Below, piece by piece: positions 1,729 to 64,000 of a DNA stretch of 64,000 nt. A program made the position numbers and the translations under genes. Position 1 is the first letter of the stretch. Each line of letters starts with the position of its first letter. The notes below the pieces were generated by a model, which saw nothing but the letters and a program-made list of their open reading frames with translations, was not told where the DNA came from and did no database searches. Source of the stretch: Candidatus Poribacteria bacterium (GTDB taxonomy: Bacteria; Poribacteria; WGA-4E; WGA-3G); NCBI GenBank assembly GCA_965242965.1, contig OZ251518.1:832001-896000 (forward strand), given 5' to 3'.

Positions 1729-1980
1729 GGTCCGTAGGACCTTAATGTCTATAGCACGTCCGCATTAACCGTAGCGCGAGGGCCTGTCCCTCGCGATCTA
1801 GTATTCTTCTTTCACCGTAGACCGTTTCGGGATCAGGCGATCCCGAACTACTTTATTAACCCGTAGCGCGAGGGCCTGTCCCTCGCGATCTAGCATTCTT
1901 CTTTCACCGTAGCGCGAGGGCCTGTCCCTCGCGATTGCCGCTTATTAACCCGTAGTGCGAGGGCCTGTCCCTCGCAATCG
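1729..1980. repeat. Intergenic REP-like cluster (one family D half-site, four family A, one family B)
   Basis: ggtccgtaggaccttaatgtctatag, gtagcgcgagggcctgtccctcgcga x4 and ttcgggatcaggcgatcccgaactac. Confidence 0.9.
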
Positions 1981-2003
1981 CCCGATCCGACAAGGAGACT
2001 CAA

Positions 2004-3470
2004 ATGAACCCAAAAACCCAATTCCCGCGGAAACGACTCCCTTACCTCACCGTCGCCGCCCTGTTCCTCTTCTCCATAACAACCGTTGCATCTGCCTTAA
2101 CCACGGAACAGATTGCCAAAAAAGCGTTAGCCGCCACTGTCTATTTAGAGATGAAAAATAGCACCGGCACGACACTCGGTTTTGGCAGCGGCTTCTTCGT
2201 CAAACCGGACCAGATTGCCACCAATTTCCACGTCATTGAAGGCGCAGCGCGAGGCACAGCGAAGTTAGTCGGCAAATACGCGCGGTATCAAATCGAAGGC
2301 ATCATCGCCACCGATAAGGACAACGATCTCGCCGTTCTGAAAGTCACCGCGTATGGTATCCCCCCGTTGTCCCTCGGCGATAGCGATACCGTGAATATCG
2401 GCGCGAAGGTTTACGTCGCCGGCAACCCGAAAGGACTAGAAGGGACATTCTCTGATGGCCTCATCAGCCGCCGCGAGCGTTATCCCAAAAAGCGGCTCCA
2501 GATGACAGCACCGATTTCGCCGGGGAGTAGCGGCGGGCCCGTGCTGAATAGCAAGGGACAGGTTATCGGGATTTCAGTTTCTGTCCATCGTGCCCTTGAC
2601 GCGCAGAACCTGAATTTTGCGATTCCATCAAATTACCTGAAGGTGCTGTTGGCAAAGGCGCGTCCTGCCAAACCTTTGTCGAAGAATAGCCCATCCATAT
2701 CTGCGGAGACCTACTTCCTTCGCGGGAATGCGAAAGATGAGTTGGGGTTGTATCATGCCGCCATTTCTGATTACGATGAGGCTATCCGCCTCAAACCTAA
2801 CTATGCCGGTGCTTACAACAACCGGGGACATGCGAAAGCGGCATTAGGCGAATACTTTCCCGCTATTGCTGATTATGATATGACTATCCGCCTCAAGCCA
2901 GATGATGTCAATGCCTACTTCAATAGGGGAATTGCGAAGTATGCTCTGGAGCAATATGAGGCCGCGATTGCGGATTATACGGCGGGTATCCGTCTCAAAC
3001 CTGATTATGCCTTTGCCTACTACATGCGGGGACATGTGAAGTATGATCTGAAGCGATATGAGGCCGCTATTGCGGATTATGACGTGGCTATCCGCCTCAG
3101 ACCTGATTATGCCGGTGCCTACTACAATCGGGGACATGCGAAGTATAGTCTGAAGCAATACTTCCGTGCCATCTCTGATTATGATATGGCAATTCGCCTC
3201 AACCCCGACTATGCCAATGCCTACGTCTATCGGGGACATGCGAAGCGTGATCTGAAGCAATATGAGGCCGCTATTGCGGATTATGATATAGCGATTCTTC
3301 TCAAACCCGACTATGCCGATGCCTACTACATGCGGGGATTTGCGAAGGCCCTGCTCAAGCGGACTTGGGAGGCGAAGCAGGATTTTCGGACTGCATGGGG
3401 ACTCGCGGAAAAGGCGGGCGATGAGAGCCTTAAAGCCCACATTGAGGAAACTCTTCGGCTTCTTGAATAG
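2004..3470 (+). CDS. Secreted trypsin-like serine protease with C-terminal TPR repeats
   Basis: Signal peptide, catalytic triad motifs TNFHV / DLAVL / ISPGSSGGP, then about 7 TPRs. Confidence 0.92.
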   Translation: MNPKTQFPRKRLPYLTVAALFLFSITTVASALTTEQIAKKALAATVYLEMKNSTGTTLGFGSGFFVKPDQIATNFHVIEGAARGTAKLVGKYARYQIEGIIATDKDNDLAVLKVTAYGIPPLSLGDSDTVNIGAKVYVAGNPKGLEGTFSDGLISRRERYPKKRLQMTAPISPGSSGGPVLNSKGQVIGISVSVHRALDAQNLNFAIPSNYLKVLLAKARPAKPLSKNSPSISAETYFLRGNAKDELGLYHAAISDYDEAIRLKPNYAGAYNNRGHAKAALGEYFPAIADYDMTIRLKPDDVNAYFNRGIAKYALEQYEAAIADYTAGIRLKPDYAFAYYMRGHVKYDLKRYEAAIADYDVAIRLRPDYAGAYYNRGHAKYSLKQYFRAISDYDMAIRLNPDYANAYVYRGHAKRDLKQYEAAIADYDIAILLKPDYADAYYMRGFAKALLKRTWEAKQDFRTAWGLAEKAGDESLKAHIEETLRLLE

Positions 3471-3510
3471 TCACATTTTCTCGCGCAAAAATGCCTGCAG
3501 CAAAATTAAT

Positions 3511-3540
3511 TTGACATGAAAGCGCGAAATGTGGTATCCT
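3511..3540 (+). promoter_or_regulatory. sigma70-type promoter for the Thoeris operon
   Basis: TTGACA-18 nt-TATCCT with extended -10 TG. Confidence 0.6.
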
Positions 3541-3760
3541 ATTTGCAATGCAGTGGTTAATTCCTTTGAGCATCCGCAACCGATTCGCGGTTGCGGATGG
3601 ACATTGCATCCGGAAATTTGCGACCGCGAAGCCGGAAGAACCAGATACGGGTAGTTTTCACATTTTCCTCTCTAAAAATCCTTTTCTGTGCTAAAATGGT
3701 TTGCACAGACTGATATCAAGGAATTAACTGAAACCATCTTCAAACCTAGCAGGTGGAGTT

Positions 3761-4342
3761 ATGAGTACCGACAAGAAATTCCACGTTTGCTTCGACGGTG
3801 TTAATGATTTTCATTACTACCGGATGATGCAAGAATGGAAGCGAAACCACTACCTGAGATTTGATTTTCACCACTCACGTGGCTTCGGTGGTGAAAACCC
3901 CTGGGAAACGGCTAAGTCCGGCCGAGTAAAGTCAATTCGTCCGGATGAACCCTTCGTCGTTTTGATTGGGGAAAGCACGCGCTATCTCCGTTTTGTGGAT
4001 TGGGAGATAAGACAGGCATTGGAACAACACGTGCCCATAATCGGGGTGAACTTGAACGGCCTGAGATTCCAAGACCTCGATCGGTGTCCCGATATTCTTC
4101 ACGGCAAACTAGCTGTTCACATCAGCTTTAACGCCCTTATCTTGCAGCATGCTTTGGAGACTTGGCCAGGGCATCACGACAGATTGCGGGAACAAGGGAA
4201 ATCGGGGCCCTACTACTACAACCAAAGCCACTACGAGAAATTAGGCATAGGACGGACGCAGAACGAATCCCGTGGGCGCGGTGACAAACCGCGTAATCCT
4301 GCACGTGCGTGGTTTCAAACCGAGTCTACCAGGGGGAAATGA
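3761..4342 (+). CDS. thsB: Thoeris ThsB-like TIR-domain protein
   Basis: VCFDGVNDFHYYRMMQEW, FVVLIGE, FVDWEIRQA (catalytic Glu), PIIGVNLNG, GPYYY; adjacent to a TM-Macro gene. Confidence 0.85.
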   Translation: MSTDKKFHVCFDGVNDFHYYRMMQEWKRNHYLRFDFHHSRGFGGENPWETAKSGRVKSIRPDEPFVVLIGESTRYLRFVDWEIRQALEQHVPIIGVNLNGLRFQDLDRCPDILHGKLAVHISFNALILQHALETWPGHHDRLREQGKSGPYYYNQSHYEKLGIGRTQNESRGRGDKPRNPARAWFQTESTRGK

Positions 4343-5319
4343 GGACATTTGCGCAGGTCCTAAGTTCTATGAAACCACGTATGAAATTACCCCTTATGTT
4401 CACTAAGGACCTCCGCCGCTCCATGCTGGCTGGGGGCGTAAAAATTTTCCTCACGGTTTGTGGCGGACTTTGGTGCTTAGTTGAAGTTCCCGCTTTCTTC
4501 TTTCCCAAGCATTTGGAATGGGCACAAGGAAACTTATGGGCGTTTTGCGGATACGTTGTATTTGCCCTAGTTGTAGTTATCTTTAAGGTTCGGCAACAAG
4601 CGAACGCTATGCTTTCGGTTCGTGAGAACTTGGAAGGAAAAGACTGTTCAATAGAAATTCAAGTCGGTGATATTTTCAAAGTGAAGGAGAAAAGTGATTT
4701 TATCATTGGCACGAATACGGACTTTGACACCGATATGTCCGACGGCCCGATCTCAAAGGACAGTTTGCAAGGGCAGTTCACAACAAAGTACTACGCCGGA
4801 AGGGAACAACACCTATATCGGGATTTGGAAGCCTCCTTGGCGGCCGAAAAGCACCCTCTTGTCGAAAATACGCATCGGCAAACCAAACGTTACGAGTTTG
4901 GCACTGTGGCTGAGGTGTCTGCTGACGATCGAGAGGTTTACTTCGTTGCCATTGACGAGTTGGACAAACAGGGAGTTGTCACTAGTTCACTCGAAAATGT
5001 CAGACAGAGTCTCTCAGAACTTTGGGGGTACATCGGCGACTATGGTGAAGTCGGGGAACTTGTCATCCCTATCTTGGGCACAAGAGGGGCTAAGATTCAG
5101 GTTCCGCGAGAGGTTATGATTATCGAAATTATTAATTCCTTTATCAAGGCTACGTATTTAGGAAAGACAATCTGCGAACGCCTGAAAATTGTTGTTTATG
5201 AGGAAGACTATCGAAATCATAACATAGATTTGAACAAATTGCGGAGTTACCTCCACGTTCACGCGACACCGAAACGATGGCAAGCTGAGGAATACGAAGT
5301 GCCTGGGAAATCTGTCTAA
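4339..5319 (+). CDS. thsA: Thoeris type II ThsA-like effector (2 TM helices + Macro domain)
   Basis: ATGA overlap with the thsB stop, two hydrophobic helices, IEIQVGDIF, IGTNTDFDT, SLQGQF, IPILGT. Confidence 0.8.
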   Translation: MRTFAQVLSSMKPRMKLPLMFTKDLRRSMLAGGVKIFLTVCGGLWCLVEVPAFFFPKHLEWAQGNLWAFCGYVVFALVVVIFKVRQQANAMLSVRENLEGKDCSIEIQVGDIFKVKEKSDFIIGTNTDFDTDMSDGPISKDSLQGQFTTKYYAGREQHLYRDLEASLAAEKHPLVENTHRQTKRYEFGTVAEVSADDREVYFVAIDELDKQGVVTSSLENVRQSLSELWGYIGDYGEVGELVIPILGTRGAKIQVPREVMIIEIINSFIKATYLGKTICERLKIVVYEEDYRNHNIDLNKLRSYLHVHATPKRWQAEEYEVPGKSV

Positions 5320-5337
5320 ACCAGAAATCCACAGCAC

Positions 5338-8088
5338 CTACCTCTTCGGATTCCAAAACGCGCAAATCATCGCGGTAATCGGAATCGCCAACACCAATCC
5401 TAACGTCCCGGCCAACAACCGCACAATCTCCGCGGACACCACGCCAATGCTCAATAACTGCGCCGGCGGCGACTTGAAAAAGTCTAGGTTCGGCGCAGCG
5501 ATTGTGATGACCAGCAGTAACTCTACGCCGAGATACGCAAATACTAACGTGTTTACCATCGTGCCCAGGATATCCGTGCCGACGTTAAGGCCTGAGGCGA
5601 TGAGCCGCCACGTCGGCATGTTCGGATTCGCACGCCGAATCTCTTCCATGCTGGATGCCACCTCAATCGCGCCATCAACTGCCACGCCTAATACGCCCAT
5701 CAACATCCCTGCCAACAGAATCTGCACGAAGTCAAACGGCGGCGTGCGCGTCGCTTCGACGATGTCCGCCGAAATGGCGTTCTCTAACCCAGAAAAGTGG
5801 AGGTGCTGCTGCGCGTAGAGGACGATGAGCCCGGCGACAAGAATGCCGCCCATCGTGCCTAGCACTGCCGAAAACGTTTTTCGGCTCGGACCGATGACGA
5901 AAACAAGTGAGACGAACGCAATCACGCCAGAAGTCAGCGTCACGATAAACACGGCGTTCGCGCCTTGCGAAATGAGCGGCAGCATGAAGAAGTAGATAAC
6001 CGTCGCGGAGATGAGCATGGCGCACGCGGTGCGGATGCCCTCAATTCTGCCGACGATAATGATGAGCAGTAACATCCCGCCTACCATCCATACCAAAAAC
6101 CCATCGCGCCCGTATTCTTGGACGATATTGACAAGACCGACTCGCTCGGGGTCTCCCCCAACGCGGCACAGCACGATGTCCCCGGGCTCCGCAGGGATAC
6201 TCAGCAACGGCATGTTATGATTGACGATGTTTCGCAGGACGAGGCGTTGTCCTTGATACATGCCGCTCAGCATTTCGACTTCAAGGATATGATGCTCGGT
6301 TTTGGTGTCGTAAACGTGTAGGGAGCGAGGAACAGAAGGGTCTGGGGAGATCGAGGGTTCGCGAGGGACAGAGAGGTCTGGTGAGACCGAGGAGTCGCGA
6401 GGGACAGGCCCTCGCGCTACGGTATCAGGCGTGGTAGGGACAGGTCCGCGCGCTGCGGGATTGGGTGTGGTGCGGATGCTGTAGGTCTGCTCGTATTTTA
6501 CATCGGAGATGAGCCAGCGGCTGTCTTTCCACGGCTTAATCGAAACTATAACCTCCTCGGAAATAGGGATGTTGTGTTTTTCAAACGCCTCGCGCAAAGC
6601 AGGTGGAAAGACGCTGTTGTCTAAATCGGCAGTGACAGAATCAGGCGATTCCGTTCTATTATCAACGGTAAACAGGAAATCGCCACTGGATTCCAGCAGT
6701 CGGATGACCTTGCCTTTCGCATATTCCGACTGCGTGAGGATGCCTCCCTGTTCGTCGCGCTGTTCGCTGATTGTGGCGGCGTTGCGTTGGACGCGTTGAT
6801 AGACAAAAGTTGTGCCGACTAGCACCAGCACCATCGCGATGGGCACGGCGATGCGGGATGCACTGCGCGGGTTCTCGGCACGGAACAGTTCCTCTAATTC
6901 CTCCTCTGAAGGCAGGTCTTCGTGAATTTCGGTTCTGTCCACTTTGGCGTATTGGGTGAGGAATCCGGCGATTGTCGCCGCGATCGGCACGGTCAGCACC
7001 AATCCAATCGTGCCGACAACGGCTTGGATAATGGCCACCGAAGTCGCTTCGTCATTGACAAGTCTGAGGAACGGATAGAGGGTGCCTGCTTCTGGGAATT
7101 CGATGCGCGGGAGGAGCATCGTCATCATGTGCGCGCCGAGGTAGGCGAAGATGAGCGTATCTGCCATCGTCCCCATAATATCGCGTCCGACGTTCAACCC
7201 CGCACGAATAGATTGCCGCACCGTGATATTCGGGTTAACCTGTTTGACTTCGTGCACGCTTGAGGAGATGGACATGCTCACGTCCATCATCGCGCCGACG
7301 GCACCGAGGATGATGCCTGCGGAGAGGATGCCGGTGAAATTCCAGTGATGCGATTCGGGTGTCCGCCACAGCGCGATGCCGAGTTCAAGAAAGCCAAACT
7401 CTTGCGCAAGCCCAGTCAGCACCAATGCGTGTTGGCTGATAACGGATAGCACGCCTACTGCCGCCAAACCGCCGAGTGTGCCTAGCACCCCAGAAACGAC
7501 TTTGAAACTGAACCCGGTAATCAAGACGAATGTCGTCAACGTCAACAGCGCGGCGATGCCGAGCGCGATGGCGATGGGGTTGTAACCGGCGATAGTCATC
7601 GGGACGAGCAGGTAAAGCACGGTGAGCGCGGTGACGAAAAGCGTCAAAATTGCGCGCACGCCTTTCATCCCGGCGACGAGAATCATCAGCACGCCGAGCG
7701 CGCCCGCGAGATAAAGCAGGAAGGGGGTCCGGAAATACTCGCGCATTCGGACATTGTCAAGCGTCGGATTGCTCGGGTCGCGGAGGGGGATATCGAGGAA
7801 CAGCACATCGCCGCGGCTGAGCACCCGGTCTCCGAAGGCGCGCCCTGTCCAGATGTTATTTACCGCGACTGTCTCGCCGCGAAACTGCCCGGAGAGGATG
7901 CGGAACGTTAACACCTGGTCTGCCTCATCGCTGGTATCTATCGCAACGACGCGGCCGAGGCAGACGAGCACCTGCAAGGCACCGTCGTGTGTAATTTCTG
8001 CGAACCGATAGAGTCTGACATGCAACACGGCAACGCTGAGCAGAATGAGCAGGATGCTGATGATTTTGATTGTTTTTGTTGATGCCAT
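5338..8088 (-). CDS. Tandem YibE/F-family membrane protein with a REP-derived insertion
   Basis: Two YibE/F-type domains (GAVGAMMDVSMSISS...GRDIMGTMADTLIFAY and GVLGVAVDGAIEVASS...GTDILGTMVNTLVFAY). Confidence 0.85.
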   Translation of the reverse strand: MASTKTIKIISILLILLSVAVLHVRLYRFAEITHDGALQVLVCLGRVVAIDTSDEADQVLTFRILSGQFRGETVAVNNIWTGRAFGDRVLSRGDVLFLDIPLRDPSNPTLDNVRMREYFRTPFLLYLAGALGVLMILVAGMKGVRAILTLFVTALTVLYLLVPMTIAGYNPIAIALGIAALLTLTTFVLITGFSFKVVSGVLGTLGGLAAVGVLSVISQHALVLTGLAQEFGFLELGIALWRTPESHHWNFTGILSAGIILGAVGAMMDVSMSISSSVHEVKQVNPNITVRQSIRAGLNVGRDIMGTMADTLIFAYLGAHMMTMLLPRIEFPEAGTLYPFLRLVNDEATSVAIIQAVVGTIGLVLTVPIAATIAGFLTQYAKVDRTEIHEDLPSEEELEELFRAENPRSASRIAVPIAMVLVLVGTTFVYQRVQRNAATISEQRDEQGGILTQSEYAKGKVIRLLESSGDFLFTVDNRTESPDSVTADLDNSVFPPALREAFEKHNIPISEEVIVSIKPWKDSRWLISDVKYEQTYSIRTTPNPAARGPVPTTPDTVARGPVPRDSSVSPDLSVPREPSISPDPSVPRSLHVYDTKTEHHILEVEMLSGMYQGQRLVLRNIVNHNMPLLSIPAEPGDIVLCRVGGDPERVGLVNIVQEYGRDGFLVWMVGGMLLLIIIVGRIEGIRTACAMLISATVIYFFMLPLISQGANAVFIVTLTSGVIAFVSLVFVIGPSRKTFSAVLGTMGGILVAGLIVLYAQQHLHFSGLENAISADIVEATRTPPFDFVQILLAGMLMGVLGVAVDGAIEVASSMEEIRRANPNMPTWRLIASGLNVGTDILGTMVNTLVFAYLGVELLLVITIAAPNLDFFKSPPAQLLSIGVVSAEIVRLLAGTLGLVLAIPITAMICAFWNPKR

Positions 8089-8166
8089 GGCGTTTCTCCA
8101 GTCATGCCGTATCACTTACGGTTGTGTTTCAGAACGAGTCAGTTCACGTATCTTCTGTTTTTTCTT

Positions 8167-8182
8167 TGCAAATAATATGCCA
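8167..8182 (-). promoter_or_regulatory. Putative sigma54 (-24/-12) promoter
   Basis: Minus strand TGGCATA-TTAT-TTGCA upstream of the YibE/F gene. Confidence 0.6.
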
Positions 8183-8274: not shown

Positions 8275-8425
8275 ACCGTAGCGCGAGGGCCTGTCCCTCG
8301 CCATTTTGTTGCAAAAACCCTGTTGCGATCAGGCGATCGCAACCTACAGAAAGAGAAGCCTGTGCCTTGCGATCCCTCGACCGCCCCGCGGCCCGTAGCG
8401 CGAGGGCCTGTCCCTCGCGATCTCG
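8275..8425. repeat. REP-like cluster (families A and B)
   Basis: gtagcgcgagggcctgtccctcgc x2 and ttgcgatcaggcgatcgcaacctac. Confidence 0.85.
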
Positions 8426-10276: not shown

Positions 10277-10280
10277 TTGC

Positions 10281-15314: not shown

Positions 15315-16270
15315 AGCGCGGGGGATAGGTTTCCCCCGCGCGATGGATTCAGCACGGCTTATTTTTTCGTAGGGCGAGGGCCTGTCCCTCGCCATGCAGC
15401 GATCGCGAGGGAAACCCGCTCGGAGCCTGAAACGATCGCGGGGGACAGGCCCCCGCGCTACGGTAGCCGGAAACGGCCCGTTTTATCGTAGGGCGAGGGC
15501 CTGTCCCTCGCCATGCACCGATCGCGGAGGAAATCCGCTTGGAGCCTGAAACGATCGCGGGGGAAACCCGCTCGGATGCGCGTGTGGCATCCGAGGGCCC
15601 CCGCGCTACGGTATCCTGAGCGTCCCGTTTTATCGTAGGGCGAGGGACAGGCCCTCGCCATGCAACGATCGCGAGGGAAACCCGCTGCGGAGCCTGAAAC
15701 GATCGCGGGGGACAGGCCCCCGCGCTACGGTATCCGGAACGGCCCGTTCTACCGTAGGGCGAGGGCCTGTCCCTCGCCATGCTGCGGTCTACCAGACGAT
15801 AGCGGGGGACAGGCCCCCGCACTACAGGCGAAAAAAAAGCGCGAAGGACAGGCCTCCGCCCTACGCGGAAAATAACGTCTCTCGTTCTCTTAAGGTCTGT
15901 AAGACCTTAATGTCTATAGCAGCCCAAACGCAAAAGGCCTTAAGGTCCTTTAGGTCCTTAATAGAGTTTGCCAGGGCCGCGCGTGTTTTTATTAAGGACC
16001 TAAAGGACCTTGAAAAGGGAACGACACGTTTTTCTATAGACATTAAGGACCTAAAGGACCTAAAGACATCACTTGACAATGGACGATCGCGGGGGATAGG
16101 CCCACGCGCTACGGTAAGACGGGCCTACTCCTGTAGGTCAAGAGCACCTGCTCTTGACCCGATTGCGATCAGGCGATCGCAAACTACAGAGGAGGAACGC
16201 GAGGGACAGGCCCTCGCCCTACGGACCAGGAAGAAAAAATGCGCGGGGGCCTGTCCCCCGCGCTACGGTG
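15315..16270. repeat. Large mosaic REP-like cluster (families A, nested A, B and D)
   Basis: Repeated inverted pairs gtagggcgagggcctgtccctcgcc ... cgcgggggacaggcccccgcgctac; family D element at 15891-16063. Confidence 0.92.
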
Positions 16271-20538: not shown

Positions 20539-21010
20539 CCCCTTAATACCCAAAGTGGGGATTGAATTTTCCCCGGAACAACGCTGGTAGATTTCGGCGT
20601 TGCAGTGGAAAGTGCAACGCGAAAAGCCCCGTGGCAGGCGCGTTTTCGCGAGAGCGTGCGCGTGCCAAGAGGCGATATGAAAAATGGCGCGCTTTGCAAG
20701 CGCGTCCGTTTTCGTCATGTTGGAATTGTCTGTAGGGATACTCCCCCGAATCGGCTTCCTGCGGAGAACGCAAGTGGTTAACAGCCGTATATGAAGGGGG
20801 GGGTAAATCGGAATTATGTTTAGTGTGGGAGTGTCCAGAGGCGGCGCGAACGTGAACAGCGCGTAGCCTGGGCGGCTGGCGCGTCGCTGCAATGGCGTTA
20901 TTCGGGCGGATGTGCGTATCCGCGATGAGAAGAACGGGTTGAGTGTTCACGTTTGGCATCCTATGTTTCGTTTCCGCGCTAAACATGTCAATTTTCACTA
21001 TATGTTATAT

Positions 21011-21159: not shown

Positions 21160-21515
21160 CCGTAGCGCGCGGGCCTGTCCCGCGCGTTTTTCGGATTCCC
21201 GTAGCGTTTTCCCGTTACCGTAGCGCGAGGGCCTGTCCCTCGCGTGCAGCAAACCACGCTCCGATCACCGTAGCGCGAGGGCCTGTCCCTCGCGATCTCT
21301 CGGTGGAACACAAAACGCCCCGTTTTACCGTAGCGCGAGGGCCTGTCCCTCGCGAATGTTCCGCGCGTCCCGGGCATGGCGGGGGACAGGCCCCCGCCCT
21401 ACGGTTAAAAGGAGCCTCCTCCTTCTGTAGTTCAAGAGCACCTGCTCTTGACCTGATGGCGATCAGGCGATCGCAAACTACAGAGGGGGAACGCGAGGGA
21501 CAGACCCTCGCGAAC
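21160..21515. repeat. REP-like cluster (families A and B)
   Basis: Four direct family A copies, an inverted A copy and a family B doublet. Confidence 0.9.
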
Positions 21516-22179: not shown

Positions 22180-22555
22180 CCGTAGCGCGAGGGCCTGTCC
22201 CTCGCGAACGCTCGATCTCCGTAACGTTTTCGCGATTCCCGTAGCGCGAGGGCCTGTCCCTCGCGAGTGTTCCGCACGTCCCTGGCATGGCGGGGGACAG
22301 GCCCCCGCCCTACGATTAAGAGGAGCCTGCTCCGTCTGTAGTTCAAGAGCGCCTGCTCTTGACCCGATGGCGATCAGGCGATCGCAAACTACAGAGGGGC
22401 GCGCGGTTTGTCCCGCGCGTGCGGCAAACCACGCCCCTTCACCGTAGCGCGAGGGCCTGTCCCTCGCGATCGCTCGATTACCGTAGACGGGAAGAAATCG
22501 AGACCAGGAGGTCTCTCCTACCCTATTGCATCGAGACCAGGAGGTCTCTCCTACC
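22180..22555. repeat. REP-like cluster (families A, B and C)
   Basis: Layout similar to 21160-21515 plus atcgagaccaggaggtctctcctac x2. Confidence 0.9.
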
Positions 22556-23479: not shown

Positions 23480-23640
23480 CCGTAGCGCGGGGGCCTGTCC
23501 CCCGCGTTGCCGGAGCGTGGCGAAGGCTTGTCCCTCTGTAGTTTGTGATCGCCTGATCACAAACGAGTCAGGATCAGGCGATCCTGACCTACAGAGCCTG
23601 GCGCGCGAACGCTGGCGAGGGACAGGCCCCCGCCCTACGA
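23480..23640. repeat. REP-like cluster (A-B-B'-A')
   Basis: gtagcgcgggggcctgtcccccgcg, gtagtttgtgatcgcctgatcacaaac and an inverted A copy. Confidence 0.88.
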
Positions 23641-24784: not shown

Positions 24785-24966
24785 ACCGTAGGGCGAGGGC
24801 CTGTCCCTCGCCATCGTTTTGGTGTCAGACTGCATCACCTCTGTAGGTCAAGATCGCCTGATCTTGACCCGTTCGGGATCAGGCGATCCCGAACTACAGA
24901 GTGGGCCCGATGCTGAAACATCTCGCCGGCAACGAACGATCGCGGGGGACAGGCCCCCGCCCTACG
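24785..24966. repeat. REP-like cluster (A-B-B'-A')
   Basis: Same modules as the other clusters. Confidence 0.88.
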
Positions 24967-26259: not shown

Positions 26260-26622
26260 TCACGATTCCCCAGTAGGAGAGACCTCCCGGTCTCGATGCA
26301 TTTCTCGCTGCAGCTGTTCTGCCTTCAGCGTTATCCACTGTTTAATCTCGGTTAATTCCTTACGCATCGTTTCCAATTCGCGCGCTTGTGCTTCAATGCG
26401 CTTTTCTTGCGCATCAAGGCGTTTTTCTTGCGCCGCCAATTTTGCATCCTGCTCGCGTTCCTTTTTCCAACCTAGGATGAGCAGCAGGCCAATCAACGCC
26501 AACAAAGCGACAAACAGCATAAAGACGTGACCGAAGTTTTTGTCCACCGAACTTATCTCGCTAAAAGTGGGGATGCCCAAGAACAACAGCCCACACATCA
26601 AAAATAGGCAAATTAACTTCAT
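26260..26622 (-). CDS. Small membrane / coiled-coil protein, paralogue of 21634..22152
   Basis: AAGGAGG RBS, TTGACA-17-TATAAT promoter at 26654-26682, WKKEREQD..AQEKRxxAQ heptads; C-terminus encoded by a family C REP. Confidence 0.7.
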   Translation of the reverse strand: MKLICLFLMCGLLFLGIPTFSEISSVDKNFGHVFMLFVALLALIGLLLILGWKKEREQDAKLAAQEKRLDAQEKRIEAQARELETMRKELTEIKQWITLKAEQLQREMHRDREVSPTGES

Positions 26623-26722: not shown

Positions 26723-27132
26723 TGAGGGTGTTTCATATTTCGAGGCGTTCGGTAGGAGAGACCTCCCGGTCTCGATTTTCCCGCATCGCGGTGGCCTGTC
26801 CTCCGCGATGGCTCAAGAACCGTTTTTTATCGTAGCGCGGGGGCCTGTCCCCCGCGATCTCCATCGTCACGATGTGTGTTTTCCCTCTGTAGTTCGGGAG
26901 CGCCCGCTCCCGAACGGGTCAGGATCAGGCGATCCTGATCTACAGAGCCTGGGGCGCGCGAACGATGGCGAGGGACAGGCCCTCGCCCTACGATGAAGGG
27001 AGACCTTCTGCTGCCGCTGCCGCGGGAGGCGCGCCGCCTATTGCATCGAGACCGGGAGGTCTCTCCTACCGGCAGAAATCGAGACCGGGAGGTCTCTCCT
27101 ACGGGTGTGCATCGAGTTATGAAATACCCTCA
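26723..27132. mobile_element. MITE-like element filled with REP modules
   Basis: TIRs TGAGGGTGTTTCATA / TATGAAATACCCTCA, flanking direct repeat AAATAAC on both sides, no coding capacity evident. Confidence 0.7.
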
Positions 27133-38408: not shown

Positions 38409-38479
38409 TTAGGCGTGCCCGGTTGAAAACCGCGCCTACGGGGCTCGGTGCCCCCTGCGTTAGTTCCAAGGAGATTTCA

Positions 38480-40518: not shown

Positions 40519-40652
40519 AGGATAAGCGAAGGGGAGCGCGCATCGGGCCCACCTCTGTAGTTCGGGAGCGGGTGCTCCCGAACGGATCAGGAGCAGGTGC
40601 TCCTGCCCTACAGGGGTGATGCGCTCTGACAGCCAAACGCACTGGGGCTCAC

Positions 40653-41771: not shown

Positions 41772-42140
41772 AACGTAGCGCGGGGGCCTGTTCCCCGCAA
41801 GCGTGGTGTAACGTAGCGCGAGGGCCTGTCCCTCGCGATCTCCATCGTCCCGATGTGTTTTTCCCCCTCTGTAGTTTGTGATCGCCTGATCACAAACAGG
41901 TCAAGATCAGGCGATCTTGACCTACAGGTGTGATGCGGTCTGCCCCCAAAACGCATGGCGAGGGACAGGCCCTCGCCCTACGGTGAAGGGGACTGTTTTT
42001 TATCGTAGCGCGGGGGCCTGTCCCCCGCGATGGTGCATGGCGAGGGACAGGCCCTCGCCCTACGGTGAAGTGCCGTTTTTTATCGTAGCGCGGGGGCCCT
42101 CGGATGCCACACGCGCATCCGAGAGGGTTTCCCCCGCGAG
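41772..42140. repeat. REP-like cluster (A, B, nested A)
   Basis: Same modules as the other clusters. Confidence 0.88.
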
Positions 42141-44440: not shown

Positions 44441-44685
44441 CAGGGTGCTCATAAATCGCTCAACGTTAACAACGGTGACAGGCCCCGCGCTGCGGTGAAA
44501 AAAACGCCGTCCCTTCACGTAGGGCGAGGGCCTGTCCCTCGCCATGCCAAACGCGCATGCGAGCGGGTTTCCCTCGCCACGCGTTTGGATGTCAGACCGC
44601 ATCACCTCTGTAGTTCAGGAGCACCTGCTCCTGACCCGTTCGGGAGCAGGTGCTCCCGAACTACAGAACTGGGCCCGATGCGCCC
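44441..44685. repeat. REP-like cluster starting with a degenerate MITE end
   Basis: cagggtgctcataaatcgctcaacg resembles the reverse complement of 62255-62281; followed by A and B modules. Confidence 0.75.
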
Positions 44686-46812: not shown

Positions 46813-47672
46813 TGAGGGTATTTCATAAATCGTTTTCCCCGGTAGGAGAGACCTCCTGGTCTCGATGCAATAGGGGGCGCGCCGGCAGAAAGCCCCCCCT
46901 TCATTGTAGGGCGAGGGCCTGTCCCTCGCCATCGCTCGCGCACTCCAACACTCGCGGGGGATAGGCAACCGCACTACGAAAAAAACGTCTCTTAGGTCCG
47001 TAGGACCTTAATGTCTATAGCACGTGAAGCTGCGAAGAACGCTAAGGTCCTTTAGGTCCTTAATAGTTTTTGAGATGCCGCGTGCTTTTTTATTAAGGAC
47101 CGAAAGGACCTTGACGTGAACCGGCACGTTTATCTATAGACATGTAGGACCTAAAGGACCTAAAACGCCCCCGCTTGGCGATGGAGATCGCGGGGGACAG
47201 GCCCCCGCGCTACGGTAAAAATAACGCCTGCCTTTCACCGTAGGGCGAGGGCCCTCGCATGCCATACGCGCATGCGAGCGGGTTCCCCTCGCCATCGCTC
47301 GCGCAATCCAACGATCGCGGGGGACAGGCCCCCGCGCTACGATAAAACGCCGCCCCATCACGTAGGGCGAGGGCCTGTCCCTCGCCAGCGTTCGCGCGCT
47401 AGGCTCTGTAGTTCAGGATCACCCGATCCTGACCTGTTTGTGATCAGGCGATCACAAACTACAGACAGGGAAGCACATGACGCTGGCGATCGCGGGGGAC
47501 AGGCCCCCGCGCTACGATAAAAATAACGCCTTCCTTTCATCGTAGGGAGGGCCCTCGGATGCCACACGCGCATGCGAGAGGGTTTCCCTCGCCAATGCTC
47601 GCGCACTCCAACGATCGCGGGGGACAGGCCCCCGCGCTACGGGAAAAATCGAGACCGGGAGGTCTCTCCTAC
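46813..47672. repeat. Large mosaic REP cluster (MITE end, C, A, D, nested A, B)
   Basis: Starts tgagggtatttcataa; family D element at 46992-47163. Confidence 0.9.
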
Positions 47673-50008: not shown

Positions 50009-50490
50009 TGAGGGTGTTTCCTAACTCGTGAGACCTTGAACGATTCCGTTTCCCCAGTAGGAGAGACCTCCTGGTCTCGATTTCTTTCTTCTTTCTGTCG
50101 TCGTGCCTACCGGGGCCGCGGTGCCTGTAGGTCAAGATCGCCTGATCTTGACCTGTTTGTGATCAGGCGATCACAAACTACAGAGGAAGAAACACACATC
50201 GTGACGTTGGAGATCGCGGGGGACAGGCCCCCGCGCTACGGTTGTCGAGGCCGTCTTCCTTTCATCGTAGGGCTTGGGCCCTCGCATGCCACGCGCGCAT
50301 GCGAGAGGGTTTCCCTCGCCATCGTTCGCGCGCCAGGCTCTGTAGTTCAGGAGCACCTGCTCCTGAACTGTTTGTGATCAGGCGATCACAAACTACAGAG
50401 GAGGGCACAATGTCTTCCGGGAACATCGAGACCAGGAGGTCTCTCCTACCGGGAATGCATCGAGACCCCGAGGGCTCTCCTACCGGCCCC
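50009..50490. repeat. Mosaic REP cluster starting with a MITE-type end
   Basis: tgagggtgtttcctaactcg followed by C, B, A, nested A, B, C, C modules. Confidence 0.88.
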
Positions 50491-52819: not shown

Positions 52820-53110
52820 CGTAGGGCGAGGGCCTGTCCCTCGCCAGTGCTCGCGTACTCCAACGCTCGCGGGGGACAGGCCCCCGCGCTACGATAAAAA
52901 ACGCCTGTCCCTCACCGTAGGGCGAGGGCCTGTCCCTCGCCGTGCCTAGATCTGCACGGGAAACGGCCTTGGTCTGCGTGCGGTTTTCGCGCGGATCGAA
53001 CGATCGCGGGGGACAGGCCCCCGCGCTACGGAAAAAAACGTCTCTTGAACGATCGCGGGGGAAACCCGCTCGGATGCGCGTGTGGCATCCGAGGGGCCCC
53101 GCGCTACGAT
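52820..53110. repeat. REP-like cluster (family A doublets, nested A)
   Basis: Inverted family A pairs. Confidence 0.88.
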
Positions 53111-54114: not shown

Positions 54115-54565
54115 CGTAGGGCGAGGGCCTGTCCCTCGCCATCGTTTTGCTGCCAGACCTCCTCCCCTCTGTAGGTCAGGATCGCCTGATCCTGACCCGT
54201 TTGTGATCAGGCGATCACAAACTACAGAGGAGCGAAACGTCCCCCGTCACCGTAGGGCGAGGGCCTGTCCCTCGCCATGCCTCGGTCTATCGAACGATCG
54301 CGGGGGACAGGCCCCCGCGCTACGGTTGTGGAGGCTGCCTTCCCGTTACCGTAGGGCGAGGGCCTGTCCCTCGCCATCGTTTTGCTGCCAGACCGCATCA
54401 CCTCTGTAGGTCAGGAGCGCCTGCTCCTGACCTGTTTGTGATCAGGCGATCACAAACTACAGAAGGGGAAATACACATCGGGACGATCGCGGGGGCCTGT
54501 CCCCCGCGCTACGATACTCGCACGCGCCAACGATCGCGGGGGCCTGTCCCCCGCGCTACGGTAGG
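54115..54565. repeat. REP-like cluster (A and B)
   Basis: Repeated A-B-B' modules. Confidence 0.9.
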
Positions 54566-55959: not shown

Positions 55960-56670
55960 TCGTAGGGCGAGGGCCTGTCCCTCGCCATGCCTCGATCTAC
56001 CGAACGCTCGCGGGGGACAGGCCCCCGCGCTACGGGTGTCAAGACCGCCTTCCCCTCACCGTAGGGCGAGGGCCTGTCCCTCGCCATGCTGCGGTCCACC
56101 GGAAACTCGCGGGGGACAGGCCCCCGCGCTACGGGAAAAATAACGGTTTTTTGAGCTCAATAAAAACACCCCTTCATCGTAGGGCGAGGGCCTGTCCCTC
56201 GCCATGCCTCGGGGCACCGAACGATCGCGGGGGACAGGCCCCCGCGCTACGGGAAAATAACGGTTTTTGAACTCATAAAAACGTCACCCCTCATCGTAGG
56301 GCGAGGGCCTGTCCCTCGCCATGCTGCAGTCTACCGAACGCTCGCGGGGGACAGGCCCCCGCGCTACGGGAAAAATAACGGGTCTTGAGCTCAATAAAAA
56401 CGTCACCCGTCACCGTAGGGCGAGGGCCTGTCCCTCGCCATGCTCCGGTCTACCGAACGATCGCGGAGGACAGGCCCCCGCGCTACGATAAAATAACGCC
56501 TTCGCGCGTTCCAACGATCACGGGGGACAGGCCCCCGCGCTACGGTTGTCGAGGCCGCCTCCCCTCACCGTAGGGCGAGGGCCTGTCCCTCGCCATGCTC
56601 CGGTCTATCGAACGATCGCTGGAGAATCGAGACCAGGAGGTCTCTCCTACGGTATTGCATCAAGACCGGG
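55960..56670. repeat. Tandem array of six family A REP doublets (about 100-155 bp period, core units about 118 bp)
   Basis: Units start near 55961, 56060, 56178, 56296, 56414 and 56569; the linkers resemble each other. Confidence 0.92.
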
Positions 56671-59658: not shown

Positions 59659-59744
59659 TTTTTGGGTTCCTTTGGAGGTTTATTTTTAATTATGATACCA
59701 TAAAGGGGTTGAAATGTCAATTTTTTCCGTTTTTTCTCATTTGA

Positions 59745-60565
59745 AGGATCGCGGGGGACAGGCCCCCGCGCTACGGTAAAATAACGGTTTTTGAGCTCGA
59801 TAAAAACGCCCTTTCATCGTAGGGCGAGGGCCTGTCCCTCGCCATGCCTCGCGCGAGGGAAAATACGTCTTTTCCTCATTTGAAGGATCACGGGGGACAG
59901 GCCCCCGCGCTACGGTGAAAAAAAACGCCATCCTTCCTCGTAGGGCGAGGGCCTGTCCCTCGCCATCGTTCACGCTGCCAGACCCCTTCCCCTCTGTAGG
60001 TCAAGAGCGCCTGCTCTTGACCCGTTTGTGATTAGGCGATCACAAACTACAGAAGGGAAACTGTCCCTCGCCAGTGCTCGCGCAATCCAACGATCGCGGG
60101 GGACAGGCCCCCGCGCTACGGTGAAAACAAACGCCTTCCGTTATCGTAGGGCGAGGGCCTGTCCCTCGCCATCGTTCACGCTGCCAGACCCCTTCCCCCC
60201 TCTGTAGGTCAAGAGCGCCTGCTCTTGACCCGTTTGTGATCAGGCGATCACAAACTACAGAAGGGGAACACGCATCGTGCCGATAGAGATCGCGGGGGAC
60301 AGGCCCCCGCGCTACGGTGAAAATAACGCCTGCCTTAAAAAACGCCTGTCCCTCGCCATCGTTTTGCTGCCAGACCCCTTCCCCCCTCTGTAGGTCAAGA
60401 GCGCCTGCTCTTGACCTGTTTGTGATCAGGCGATCACAAACTACAGAAGGGAACTGTCCCTCGCTAGTGTTCGCGTACTCCAACGATCGCGGGGGACAGG
60501 CCCCCGCGCTACGGTGAACAATGGGGCTTTGAGAGATCGCGGGGGACAGGCCCCCGCGCTACGAT
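59745..60565. repeat. Mosaic REP cluster with three copies of a ~120-bp A-B-B' supermodule
   Basis: Copies near 59939-60057, 60145-60265 and 60345-60450. Confidence 0.92.
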
Positions 60566-60607
60566 AAAAAAAACGGTTCTTGAGCCATCGCTACGGGGCC
60601 AGGCAGG

Positions 60608-61828: not shown

Positions 61829-61852
61829 GTTGTGCTGCCTTTATAGTTAAAT

Positions 61853-62281
61853 GAGGGTGTTTCATAATTCCGTTTCGGATTTATCCCGCCTTGGAGGGTG
61901 GGATAACACCAGAAGGCATCGGGCCCACCTCTGTAGTTCGGGATCGCCCGATCCCGAACGGGTCAGGAGCAGGCGATCCTGACCTACAGGGGTGATGCGC
62001 TCTGCCAGCCAAACGCATGGCGAGGGACAGGCCCTCGCCCTACGGTAACCCGGGGCGTTTTTTTCTGTCGATCCGTTCGGGATCAGGCGATCCCGAACTA
62101 CGGTCTTTTCCAAGGTCTGGGCACGGCGAGGGAAACCCGCTCGGATGCGCGTGTGGCATGCGAGGGCCCAAGCCCTACGCGAAGGGGTGGCGTTTTTTTA
62201 TCGCAGCGCGGGGCCCTCGGATGCCACACGCGCATCCGAGAGGGTTTCACCGCGACGTTGAGCGAGTTATGAAACACCCTC
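61853..62281. mobile_element. MITE-like element filled with REP modules
   Basis: Perfect 15-bp TIRs GAGGGTGTTTCATAA / TTATGAAACACCCTC; exact 8-bp flanking repeat AGTTAAAT at 61845-61852 and 62282-62289. Confidence 0.8.
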
Positions 62282-62378
62282 AGTTAAATGCATCGAGACC
62301 AGGAGGTCTCTCCTACTCCCCATCTGTAGTTTGTGATCGCCTGATCACAAACGATGCATCGAGACCAGGAGGGCTCTC

Positions 62379-63023
62379 CTACCGAGTGAATCGTTGATTA
62401 ATTGTTTTCACCAAACCTGCGTCGATTCGGCAACGTTCCGCCGCAATAATCGCCTGAATCTGAGCCACAGCCTGTTTTATCCCACCGTCATGGTTAGTAA
62501 CGCAATAGTCGTAGTGCTGAATTTGGGCGATTTCGGATGCCGCGATGTCCAAGCGTTGCATCAGTTCCGATTCCGATTCCGTTTTCCTGCCGCGGAGTCG
62601 TTTCTCCAAATCGGCAAACGATGCAGGGACGATGAAGATGAGTAGACTCCTAACAGTTCCATGTCCTATCCGTTGGCGCGCTTGTAGCGCGCCTTGGACT
62701 TCGATCTCCAAAACCGAGGCTTTCCCTGCGTTTTGTCCGAGCGCGATTTCAGACATGAGTGTGCCGTAGAAATTGCCGCCGTATTCTGCCCATTCGAGGA
62801 ACCCTTCCTGCTGAATCAGTTCCTCAAATTCGGATTTTGACAGAAAGTGATAGTCCACGCCGTCCACTTCGCGTGGGCGCGGCGTGCGCGTCGTTGCGGA
62901 AACGGCGAGTCTCAACGTCTCATCTGCTTTGCAGAGTGCATTGACGACGGTGCTTTTACCGGAGCCCGAAGGACCCGAAATAACGACGACTAAATTGGGT
63001 TGATAGAAATCCTTATGTGCCAC
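62379..63023 (-). CDS. gmk: Guanylate kinase
   Basis: SGPSGSGKST, SATTRTPR..EVDGVDYHF, FLEWAEY.GNFYGT, EIEVQGA. Confidence 0.97.
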   Translation of the reverse strand: MAHKDFYQPNLVVVISGPSGSGKSTVVNALCKADETLRLAVSATTRTPRPREVDGVDYHFLSKSEFEELIQQEGFLEWAEYGGNFYGTLMSEIALGQNAGKASVLEIEVQGALQARQRIGHGTVRSLLIFIVPASFADLEKRLRGRKTESESELMQRLDIAASEIAQIQHYDYCVTNHDGGIKQAVAQIQAIIAAERCRIDAGLVKTINQRFTR

Positions 63024-63038
63024 GACGATTTTCTGCGC

Positions 63039-63497
63039 TCAACCCGCCGCATCCTCAAGTTCTAACAGCACCGGGGATTCAATGCGAATTGCATCTTTGA
63101 TGCAGACTTCTTCACAGAGTTTGCATCCGACGCAGTCCTTCGGTTTGACGAGTTCGCAAATTCCGAAGAAACTTTCGGCATGTTCGCCCGTCTCGGGGTC
63201 TTTCAGTTCGAGGCAGTCCCACGGACAGATATGGACGCAGAAGTCGCATCCGGAGCAGAGTTCTTCGTAGATAACGGCGATAGGACGGTGCGTTGGGCGG
63301 CGAATGAATTTGCAGACTTCGCCGAACTGGTCGCGGATTGCCTCTACCGGGCAAACCATCCCGCACGCGCTGCAATCAATACAGACACCCGGGTCGATGA
63401 TGTGCAACATATTCCGGTCGCCGGTAATCGCATCGACCGGGCAATTGGTAAGGCACGCCATGCACCCGATACATTCATCAGTGATATAATAGGCCAT
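63039..63497 (-). CDS. 4Fe-4S polyferredoxin (four cluster motifs)
   Basis: Four CxxCxxCxxxC motifs. Confidence 0.92.
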   Translation of the reverse strand: MAYYITDECIGCMACLTNCPVDAITGDRNMLHIIDPGVCIDCSACGMVCPVEAIRDQFGEVCKFIRRPTHRPIAVIYEELCSGCDFCVHICPWDCLELKDPETGEHAESFFGICELVKPKDCVGCKLCEEVCIKDAIRIESPVLLELEDAAG

Positions 63498-63654
63498 CAG
63501 TTGTTTACCTCCGATTCTATTTTACCACAAGGTTTGTGGATTTTCAAGGTGTATTTTCGGTTTCTGTTGTGTAAGGTCCTCAGCACAGATTCATGATATT
63601 ATATATTATACCTAATTTGCAGAAAAAATGCAATGAAAAAAATGCTGTCGTTTC

Positions 63655-64000
63655 ATCGTAGGGCGGTAGGAAAACCTGTCCCTCGCGATGCATTTTGGTG
63701 TCAGACCGCATCACTCCTGTAGGTCAAGATCGCCTGATCTTGACCCGTTCGGGAGCAGGCACTCCCGAACTACAGAGGTGGGCGATGCCTTCCGGTAGGA
63801 GAGACCTCCTGGTCTCGATGTTCCCGTAGCGCGGGGGCCTGTCCCCCGCGATCTCCATCGTTACGATGTGTGTCCCCCCTGTAGTTTGTGATCGCCTGAT
63901 CACAAACAGGTCAGGATCGCTTGGCAAAGATGCCAGAGCTTCAGACGATCCTGCCCTACAGGGCCCGGCGCGTGAACGATAGCGAGGGACAGGCCCTCGC
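63655..64000. repeat. REP-like cluster (A, B, C), truncated by the window end
   Basis: Same modules as the other clusters. Confidence 0.88.

Follow-up and report, generated by a model that had tools for sequence, protein, structure and literature searches.

The hairpin repeats that fill much of the intergenic DNA in a 64-kb stretch (the window) of Candidatus Poribacteria, a sponge symbiont, are probably non-autonomous members of the superfamily of GTAG-tagged REPs, arranged in inverted doublets of REPIN type and mosaics of BIME type. Judged by sequence, they have every feature by which this superfamily is recognised. The GTAG REP/REPIN identity given to them in a preliminary description of this DNA is sustained by the GTAG foot, the inverted heterodimeric doublets, the BIME-like arrays and the compensated stems. 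Elements of this kind are already well described; here they are unusually dense and nested. No published report of REPs in Poribacteria was found in the literature searched.

Hairpin families and their distribution

Family-specific patterns identified 134 GTAG-footed hairpins in the window, 80 of family A, 39 of family B and 15 of family C. When units no more than 200 bp apart were linked, these fell into 24 clusters (Table 1), and the clusters make up 59% of the window's intergenic DNA. Within the window there are 2.1 to 2.25 units per kb, and the stretch from 27.1 to 40.5 kb is without any GTAG hairpin unit. The preliminary description, which had reported about 20 intergenic clusters of unusual density built from several co-occurring palindrome families with a shared GTAG foot, agrees with these counts. 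The family A motif GTAGSGCGRGGG has 78 matches against 0.03 expected, a number reached in none of 100 shuffles. With up to two mismatches allowed, GTAGGTCAAGATC and GTAGGAGAGACC each have 19 matches, against 1.06 and 2.81 expected. Like REPs, the units are high-copy and mostly extragenic in the window, with 126 of the 134 outside called ORFs. Of the eight inside ORFs, seven occupy a doubtful ORF or N-terminal extensions that are doubtful.

The GTAG foot is specific. Hairpins with a stem of at least 7 bp and at most one mismatch, directly behind a tetramer, number 144 for GTAG, whereas the 11 remaining permutations of these letters give 5 to 65. The highest of the alternatives, TAGG with 65 hairpins, overlaps GTAGG. 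In the aligned units, GTAG is invariant across all 80 of family A and all 39 of family B.

All three families are short palindromes, within the 20–40 bp length, 5–13 bp stem and short loop of REPs. Unit, stem and loop measure 25 nt, 8 bp and 5 nt in A, 26 nt, 9 bp and 4 nt in B, and about 22–25 nt, 7 bp and 4 nt in C. The stems are paired at 98.2% in A (90.1% in shuffles) and at 97.0% in B (78.7% in shuffles). Three of the eight A pairs and five of the nine B pairs vary on both sides, and G-U accounts for only 5 of 384 and 2 of 270 cells, respectively. The stem changes are compensated Watson-Crick changes, and the near absence of G-U pairs makes a constraint on DNA more likely than one on RNA. 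In 4 of the 80 A units the loop is inverted, from CCTGT to ACAGG, and the stem is unchanged. A T-run (at least six T in the nine bases behind the hairpin) follows only 4 of the 134 units, which sets them apart from intrinsic terminators, where a G+C-rich hairpin is joined to such a run.

Table 1. Repeat features of the window, with coordinates counted from its first nucleotide
Position	Strand	Organisation	Remarks
19..43	+	single A unit, subtype A3 (GTAGCGCGAGGG...)	precedes the part covered by the preliminary description
40-120		further GTAG-tagged motif, 27-bp x3 tandem on minus strand	after A3 unit 19..43
1771..1976	.	>A <B >A >A >A	A3 units head-to-tail, periods 43-92 bp
6325-6407		36-bp x2.3 REP-derived linker	holds A3 unit of YibE/F double-domain ORF
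6396..6420	-	A3 unit	in frame within 925-aa YibE/F double-domain ORF
8278..8419	+	two A3 units head-to-tail	lone B-like unit between, 8347, minus strand
15369..15864	.	A1/A2 heterodimer doublet array	doublets 93, 94, 72 bp; 147-bp tandem period
about 15560-15609		longer hairpin module	within A1/A2 array 15369..15864
16088..16266	.	<A >B <B' <A <A	directly 3' of 1385-aa LTD gene stop; last unit with flipped loop and T-run
21162..21481	.	>A >A >A >A <A >B <B'	shares 87% identity with 22182..22554 across 250 bp; the two are direct repeats either side of small coiled-coil gene
22182..22554	.	>A >A <A >B <B' >A <C <C
23482..23638	.	full composite A-B-B'-A	reversed relative to most copies
24788..24965	.	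full composite A1-spacer-B-B'-spacer-A, 178 bp	ssDNA fold: A arms paired, B at apex
26273..26294	+	single C unit
26723..27132	.	mosaic of four nested layers: F> C> A2> B> <B' <A1 <C <C <F
40557..40611	.	isolated 55-bp B doublet	between convergent genes
41775..42063	.	>A >A >B <B' <A >A <A	composite and 59-bp A doublet
44519..44664	.	partial composite: A1, left spacer, B doublet	without right A unit
46813..46930	+	F motif, C unit, A1 unit	left edge of cluster 47189..47672
47189..47672	.	<A <A >A >B <B' <A <A <C	C 17 bp downstream of receptor gene stop
50009..50483	.	F> C> B> <B' <A2 B> <B' <C <C
52821..53029	.	two doublets of 72 and 113 bp, both A1/A2 heterodimers
54116..54559	.	partial composite, 72-bp doublet, full composite, extra A2	two A2 with flipped loops
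55962..56650	.	five 72-bp A1/A2 doublets in tandem, period about 118 bp	terminal C unit provides methylase gene's TAG stop codon
59750..60562	.	largest cluster, 813 bp, 15 units: composites and A doublets	composites (two full, one partial) lie in tandem and are 84-87% identical
61852..62382	.	mosaic F (61852+), B, B', A, B, long hairpin module, F (62268-), C, B, C	second F inverted relative to first; last C unit provides guanylate kinase TAG stop codon
63719..63906	.	>B <B' >C >A >B	runs towards window end

Doublets, composites and tandem arrays

Often the units are found as inverted doublets. Fifteen head-to-head doublets contain A units only, and all 15 are heterodimers. Eight of them are 72 bp with related spacers, and no two of the 15 are identical in this small sample from one window. 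The 19 B doublets are every one 55 bp from outer G to outer G, and each pairs a [G/T]TCA[A/G]GA.. unit with a TT[T/C]G.GA.. unit, so they too are heterodimers. These 15 A and 19 B doublets are inverted REP pairs with a spacer, predicted to form a single-strand hairpin, which is the form of a REPIN. The predicted ssDNA fold of the 72-bp A doublet (-29.3 kcal/mol, z -5.6) has its two A arms paired.

Of the 19 B doublets, eight lie inside a pair of outward-facing A units, six more have such an A unit on one side only and five have none. The resulting A-B-B'-A' arrangement is a composite of roughly 180 bp with homologous spacers, present at no fewer than eight separate intergenic sites. In an alignment of 14 full or partial composites the spacers are shared, with two types of left spacer. 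The spacer columns have a mean pairwise identity of 49.8% (gaps counted as differences) versus 92.0% for the hairpin columns. The ssDNA fold predicted for the composite (-64.6 kcal/mol, z -10.3) pairs the A arms and places the B hairpins at its apex. Outside the composites lie further layers, made up of C units and another motif, F. Additionally, A1 and A2 alternate in tandem arrays with conserved linkers, the organisation of a BIME. For example, the array at 55962-56581 has a period of about 118 bp and 3.8 copies with 88% matches.

The inverted doublets and nested A-B-B'-A' groups of the preliminary description are real, but the ordered mixing that it found unusual calls for no unusual process. 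The order follows from one composite with shared spacers that was copied whole, plus local tandem duplication. Coexistence of several families, ordered two-family arrays, REPINs placed within or beside other REPINs, heterodimers, hybrid dimers and hybrid clusters have already been described (PMC3116915, PMC3733652). The presence of the composite at so many sites, with shared spacers, shows that it has moved at some time. The divergence of the spacers, set beside the near identity of the hairpins, argues against a recent burst.

Search for a RAYT gene and comparison with a related genome

Of the 121 window ORFs listed (at least 100 aa), 119 were scanned for Y1_Tnp and none matched; the other two are 5'-open variants at the window start. 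The search was extended to 31 loci that carry the exact A 25-mer, 29 of them from one related Poribacteria genome record, so that it covers the window and about 0.32 Mb of a relative rather than the source genome. None of the 26 H-x-H-motif ORFs and none of the 30 REP-flanked ORFs of the 31 loci matches Y1_Tnp. Queried with E. coli RayT, phmmer returned nothing, even at E values as high as 50, in the 5,224 frames (50 aa or longer) from the loci and the window. The earlier statement that no RAYT gene lies in the window is thus confirmed. The further claim, that an active trans-acting enzyme is implied, finds no support in 15 A doublets that all differ and composite spacers that are about 50% identical.

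The sample of the related Poribacteria genome holds 352 GTAG hairpins in 323 kb. These include a different abundant GTAG family, and family B is almost absent. At the orthologous site downstream of the LTD gene, both genomes carry REP clusters, which differ in content. The A-type 25-mer is also found in genome records of Chloroflexi and Myxococcales.

Origin of the repeats

By analogy with the REPs of E. coli, Stenotrophomonas and Pseudomonas, the hairpins would form in single-stranded DNA. The GTAG foot and stem may then be recognised by at least one HUH/Y1 'RAYT' (TnpA-REP) enzyme encoded elsewhere in the genome, and such putative RAYTs would cut and rejoin single strands at the hairpins. 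If so, whatever lies between two inverted feet would move as a unit. The composite could have originated from the arrival of a B doublet in the middle of an A doublet, followed by spread through A-specific activity. Tandem duplication also enlarges the clusters.

Are the hairpins instead relics of a perhaps lost transposase, kept for a host function and now subject only to duplication and decay? They might, for example, be 3'-end mRNA stabilisers, insulators between unrelated same-strand genes, or gyrase or nucleoid-protein sites. Since the copies have diverged, host function could be what keeps the hairpins 92% identical next to spacers at 50%. Same-strand genes flank most clusters, several C units are at or within 17 bp of stop codons, with two supplying the TAG stop, and RAYT was not found in the window or the 31 loci. 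However, the few T-runs indicate that the units are not standard intrinsic terminators, and the scarcity of G-U pairs fits a constraint on DNA better than one on RNA. The composites with shared spacers at eight or more intergenic sites also show that this unit did move at some time, and the family repertoire differs between the two Poribacteria genomes. We consider such relics, and the host functions suggested for them, unlikely.

Spread without a dedicated enzyme is a still weaker candidate, and a very improbable one. It would proceed through replication slippage, template switching at hairpins and unequal or ectopic recombination, with gene conversion keeping the stems uniform. Tandem arrays and near-duplicate neighbouring clusters are present, and the four inverted A loops would result from a strand switch or a recombination event inside a hairpin. 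Yet this leaves unexplained the invariant unpaired GTAG foot on three otherwise different hairpins, the fixed 55-bp geometry of the B doublet at 19 sites and the dispersal to many unlinked intergenic sites. Beyond repetitiveness itself, nothing favours an assembly artefact, a CRISPR array or an IS-derived MITE with terminal inverted repeats and target duplications, and the chance of any of these is minimal. The copies differ and are located between intact ordinary genes, and the same families are present in an independent genome record. The units are mostly inverted and irregularly spaced, with no regular direct-repeat/spacer layout and no match in Rfam, and the 119 ORFs scanned include no cas or transposase genes.

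Significance

REP and REPIN biology is based almost wholly on Proteobacteria. A PVC-related uncultured lineage of sponge symbionts with at least three GTAG families widens the known host range. A multi-copy 'REPIN inside a REPIN' bears on the target choice of these elements and on the mobilisation of anything between two inverted feet. REP mosaics also break short-read assemblies, create spurious ORFs and displace gene starts and stops in Poribacteria annotations. Several such annotation problems are present in the window.

A bolder view of these REP-superfamily hairpins, which we think rather doubtful, is that Poribacteria carry a REPIN mosaic that ranks among the densest and most deeply nested on record, with about 1–2 GTAG hairpins per kb, about 60–70% of the intergenic DNA covered, and doublets of one family as cargo within those of another in up to four layers (F, C, A and B). 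Were this true, nesting would result when new elements enter an already folded doublet at its single-stranded apex, and several co-resident, family-specific RAYTs would act hierarchically. These uncultured symbionts would then be a natural system for competition and co-operation in REPIN populations, and the A-type 25-mer in Chloroflexi and Myxococcales records would hint at RAYT-REP transfer between phyla.

Comparison with known REP systems

The BIMEs of E. coli are mosaics of Y, Z1 and Z2 REPs with conserved linker motifs. They share with the window two REP variants in alternating orientation, conserved linkers, tandem amplification and further non-REP motifs in the mosaic; BIMEs are named in the accessible text of PMC2817692. 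The window REPs are perfect palindromes without the E. coli bulge. Perfect palindromes are recognised by second-group RAYTs (PMC8266576). Unlike BIMEs, the window mosaic mixes clearly different hairpin families, not variants of one.

Pseudomonas fluorescens SBW25 has at least 1,422 units in a genome of about 6.7 Mb, and the density of the window is about ten times that. The REPINs of this strain (Bertels and Rainey 2011, PMC3116915) resemble those of the window in their inverted spaced doublets that form one ssDNA hairpin, three families per genome, tandem doublet arrays including flanks, ordered two-family arrays and a few clusters of REPINs inserted into or next to REPINs. The largest SBW25 cluster given there has four REPINs, and the nested cases are five regions. 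In contrast, the nested composite of the window is itself multi-copy, with up to four layers.

Also close are the 24 GTAG families of the superfamily described by Di Nocera, De Gregorio and Rocco 2013, among them those of two PVC-group species, Opitutus terrae and Rhodopirellula baltica; they have heterodimers, hybrid dimers, clusters, intragenic units and family-specific RAYT genes (PMC3733652, sections available). Common to them and the window are the unpaired 5' GTAG, stems of 6–13 bp, short loops, sub-families set apart by complementary stem changes, and head-to-head dimers with 20–100 bp spacers. Heterodimers, clusters, several families per genome, intragenic units and the use of the foot TAG as a stop codon are likewise shared (PMC3733652, same sections). 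Poribacteria are not among the phyla named in those sections. G-T/G-U pairing is frequent in the superfamily as described there and almost absent in the window. Head-to-tail arrays, which the same text calls rare in most genomes, are formed in the window by the A3 units, and the window further differs from the superfamily in its density of about 2 units per kb.

GTAG-footed hairpin families

The preliminary description had proposed three hairpin families, and their motifs do occur far more often than chance allows. GTAGSGCGRGGG is matched 78 times in the window (expected 0.03), and with up to two mismatches GTAGGTCAAGATC and GTAGGAGAGACC are each matched 19 times (expected 1.06 and 2.81, respectively). 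Family-specific patterns identify 134 units, of which 80 belong to family A, 39 to B and 15 to C, and these fall into 24 clusters of units no more than 200 bp apart. The tetranucleotide GTAG directly precedes a hairpin 144 times (stem of 7 or more, no more than one mismatch), against 5 to 65 times for the eleven other orderings of the same letters, the highest being TAGG, which overlaps GTAGG. The GTAG foot is therefore specific.

In the A unit, GTAG is followed by an 8-bp stem whose two arms enclose a CCTGT loop. Four sub-types arise from variation at stem positions 1 and 5 (Table), and the opposite arm always changes complementarily. In four of the 80 units the loop is flipped to ACAGG with stem and foot unaltered, as would be expected from strand switching or recombination inside the hairpin. 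All 15 A-only doublets, in which two units lie head-to-head with their feet outward, are heterodimers of A1 with A2 or A3 with A4. No two of them are identical. Eight have a length of 72 bp and spacers that are related to each other; as single-stranded DNA this 72-bp form is predicted to fold into a single long hairpin (-29.3 kcal/mol, z -5.6). A3 units are also found in head-to-tail arrays.

Family B units have GTAG, mostly within TCTGTAG, followed by a 9-bp stem with a GCCT or ACCT loop. The 19 B doublets are all exactly 55 bp and each joins a [G/T]TCA[A/G]GA.C unit to a TT[T/C]G.GA.C unit. Family C, GTAGGAGAGACCTCC[C/T]GGTCTCGAT, is found at the outer cluster edges with its foot outward in 12 of 15 cases, with two units internal and one solitary. 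Twice the C unit provides the TAG stop codon of the adjoining gene, and two further C units lie 10 and 17 bp past a stop codon. A fourth motif, F (TGAGGGTRTTTCATA, 15 nt), is matched six times in the window (expected 0.12) and twice encloses an entire cluster as an inverted pair. One such cluster has four nested layers, in the order F C A B B' A C C F. A longer palindromic module, GTAGGGC..GGGCCCTCGCATGCCACACGCGCATCCGAGCGGGTTTCCCTCGCC, recurs within several clusters. Upstream of the first gene and adjoining an A3 unit there is a 27-bp unit in three copies (96% matches), whose minus-strand reading starts with GTAG (GTAGGTTCTCTGATTCCGCGAGATC).

Location of the repeats and the genes they touch

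The clusters make up 6,435 of 10,953 intergenic bases (59%) in the first gene set. With corrected gene starts, intra-window repeats cover 8,183 of 12,099 intergenic bases (68%) and 2,291 of 51,901 genic bases, the genic repeats being TPR repeats and paralogous genes. Units are absent from 27.1 to 40.5 kb, a stretch of tightly packed genes. The genes themselves are ordinary chromosomal ones, including those for UvrC, a TrmB-like methyltransferase, glutamine synthetase, KsgA, CoaBC, guanylate kinase, TonB, TonB-dependent receptors and MacB/HlyD.

Three longest-ORF calls, for a GFO/IDH oxidoreductase, a 738-aa protein and KsgA, extend into REP units; their true starts are probably further inside, and gene calls in such genomes are likely to be distorted by REP mosaics. 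In a 925-aa ORF, the linker between two YibE/F domains is REP-derived; it contains degenerate copies as well as one intact A3 unit, with the in-frame reading ...VARGPVPR... Either a REP has inserted within a gene here, or two genes have become fused via a REP spacer that has no in-frame stop. A 1003-aa Eco57I-like methylase, with weak matches to type IIG restriction-modification systems (PADLOC E 1.5e-06), has the foot of a C unit as its TAG stop. The window also has a Thoeris-type defence pair, in which the gene for a ThsB TIR protein (PADLOC ThsB1, E 3e-40) overlaps by 34 bases the following one, for ThsA with a Macro domain (ThsA1, E 3.5e-60), and a 305-bp tandem duplication (91% matches) that takes in the last part of a 333-aa hypothetical gene together with the entire next 100-aa ORF.

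Table. Repeat features and other loci (window coordinates)
Feature	Position	Remarks
A1		Stem positions 1 and 5: G..A
A2		Stem positions 1 and 5: C..G
A3		Stem positions 1 and 5: C..A
A4		Stem positions 1 and 5: G..G
A units with inverted loop	15635-15659, 16242-16266, 54488-54512, 54535-54559	
Head-to-tail A3 arrays	1771-1976, 21162-21341	
C units providing a TAG stop	56647-56649, 62379-62381	
F motif TGAGGGTRTTTCATA	26723, 27118, 46813, 50009, 61852, 62268	No GTAG foot; outer edges of REP clusters; inverted pairs 26723+/27118- and 61852+/62268-
Nested mosaic	26723-27132	
GTAGGGC..GGGCCCTCGCATGCCACACGCGCATCCGAGCGGGTTTCCCTCGCC module	15560-15609, 47240-47259, 50267-50290, 62127-62178	
27-bp repeat	40-120	
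118-bp tandem repeat	56052-56498	
Neighbouring composites	59883-60518	
Likely GTAGGCGCGGTTT copy	38439	
Small gene between clusters	21634-22152	
Small ORF	20543-20998	
Longest-ORF starts in REP units	23517, 46943, 54142	GFO/IDH oxidoreductase, 738-aa protein, KsgA
YibE/F ORF	5338-8115	Linker, especially 6325-6458
Eco57I-like methylase	56647-59658	
Thoeris-type pair	3761-5319	
305-bp duplication	37799-38409	

A composite repeated unit

Several families are found together in the order A-B-B'-A', a B doublet inside an A pair. Is this the result of recurrent chance meetings between families? Or, has a single unit been copied? We aligned 14 full or partial stretches of this composite, which is about 180 bp long, complete at eight intergenic sites and partial at six further ones. 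The A-to-B spacers are homologous across composites, with two left-spacer types and one right spacer common to five copies. The composite is therefore a single repeated unit rather than the product of chance meetings, so that the ordered mixing previously reported is real but its regularity is accounted for by one copied unit. As single-stranded DNA the predicted fold (-64.6 kcal/mol, z -10.3) has the A arms paired mutually and two separate B hairpins at the apex. Clusters have also expanded locally: a 118-bp unit is present in 3.8 tandem copies, neighbouring composites are 84-87% identical, and one small gene is flanked by two clusters that are 87% identical across 250 bp.

Constraint on the hairpins

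Stem positions are paired in 97.0% of cases in B, versus 78.7% in shuffles, and in 98.2% in A, versus 90.1%. Changes on both sides are present in five of the nine B stem pairs (55 cells) and three of the eight A stem pairs, and G-U pairs are rare (2 of 270 and 5 of 384 cells, respectively). The shuffle control overstates significance because the copies are related to one another, but with slid-partner controls, which pair at 27-65%, the result is still clear. Across the eight full composites (28 pairs), mean identity is 92.0% in hairpin columns versus 49.8% in spacer columns, gaps being counted as differences. An alternative reading of the hairpins as intrinsic terminators was rejected, a T-run being found behind only 4 of the 134 units. 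Scans of the window for Rfam families and tRNA found none.

Comparison between genomes

The window UvrC is 77-78% identical to four proteins named Candidatus Poribacteria among 120 listed, the best listed matches being 90-98% identical. The exact 25-nt A pattern is present at a minimum of 31 loci in the genome collection; those listed are 29 from Candidatus Poribacteria bacterium (PYJE01), one from Chloroflexi and one from Myxococcales. None of the fetched loci overlaps the window by 300 bp or more, so the window comes from a different, related genome. The PYJE01 loci share the window's G+C of 54%.

In the PYJE01 loci (323 kb, non-redundant) A1, A2 and A3 are present, with a few C units, and B is nearly absent; F was not found in the 32 loci fetched. 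Another GTAG family, starting GTAGGCGCGGTTT, has more than 100 copies in these 323 kb (e.g. L025:9000-9900 and L014:2300-3000) and one likely copy in the window, which points to the expansion of different families in each lineage. GTAG hairpins number 352 in 322,852 bases of PYJE01, or 1.09 per kb in loci picked for having an A unit. The single comparable orthologous site is downstream of the stop of a large LTD-domain gene, whose proteins are 74% identical over 330 residues. Here both genomes have a REP cluster, with differing units and order. Together with the differing repertoires, this one site in two genomes indicates that repertoire and cluster content vary on the scale of species.

The Chloroflexi (66% G+C) and Myxococcales (70% G+C) matches, at L003:10001-10025 and L017:10001-10025, are of the G..G sub-type and have a few related GTAG hairpins nearby. 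By our own arithmetic about 0.02 chance matches to the 25-mer are expected in 596 Gb; A-type families may therefore, among the matches listed, be common to several phyla or convergent.

Search for a mobilizing enzyme

GTAG REPs and REPINs are spread by RAYTs, REP-associated tyrosine transposases with a Y1_Tnp domain. In agreement with the initial reading that the window holds no RAYT gene, none of its 119 ORFs of at least 100 aa (44 main and 75 others) has a Pfam match to Y1_Tnp. In the fetched loci the Y1_Tnp test covered a subset of the 245 ORFs listed, with no match in 26 having an H-x-H motif or in 30 flanked by REPs. A phmmer search with E. coli RayT gave no match at E up to 50 in the window and 31 fetched loci. 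The small gene between two similar clusters was considered as a REP-associated gene and rejected, its product being a signal-peptide and coiled-coil protein without the HUH motif; the ORF at 20543-20998 looks spurious. These results for the window and fetched loci are no evidence for genome-wide absence; RAYTs are described as mostly single-copy (PMC5581495). From homology of form, we infer that a RAYT may have spread the window repeats. The further suggestion that the repeats imply an active enzyme was not borne out, and the diverged spacers argue against a recent burst.

Comparison with known REP and REPIN systems

Much of this organisation has been described elsewhere. Di Nocera et al. 2013 (PMC3733652) report 24 GTAG REP families spread over many phyla, the hosts including two members of the PVC group, Opitutus terrae and Rhodopirellula baltica. 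One genome can have multiple families, sub-families differ by complementary substitutions in the stem, and the dimers described include head-to-head ones with spacers of 20-100 bp, heterodimers and hybrids of different families. Structured spacers, clusters, intragenic units, feet serving as stop codons, family-specific RAYT genes and family sizes of up to thousands of units are reported there too. In SBW25, Bertels and Rainey 2011 (PMC3116915) describe at least 1,422 REP units, REPINs, tandem arrays of REPIN plus flank, two-family ordered arrays, and REPINs inside or beside REPINs in five regions. The window units are of the perfect-palindrome type, like the second REP group of Corneloup et al. 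2021 (PMC8266576), which is recognised differently by its RAYT.

A search of the available literature for published REPs or Y1_Tnp/REP-associated genes in Poribacteria found nothing relevant; in one sponge paper that names a REP-associated tyrosine transposase, the genome is from Opitutales. Compared with the passages of PMC3733652, PMC3116915 and PMC8266576 consulted, the Poribacteria host is new, and, in their main-text passages, so are the multi-copy doublet-in-doublet and a density of about two units per kb. The observation is both real and striking, and the repeats are new families of a well-known kind of element.
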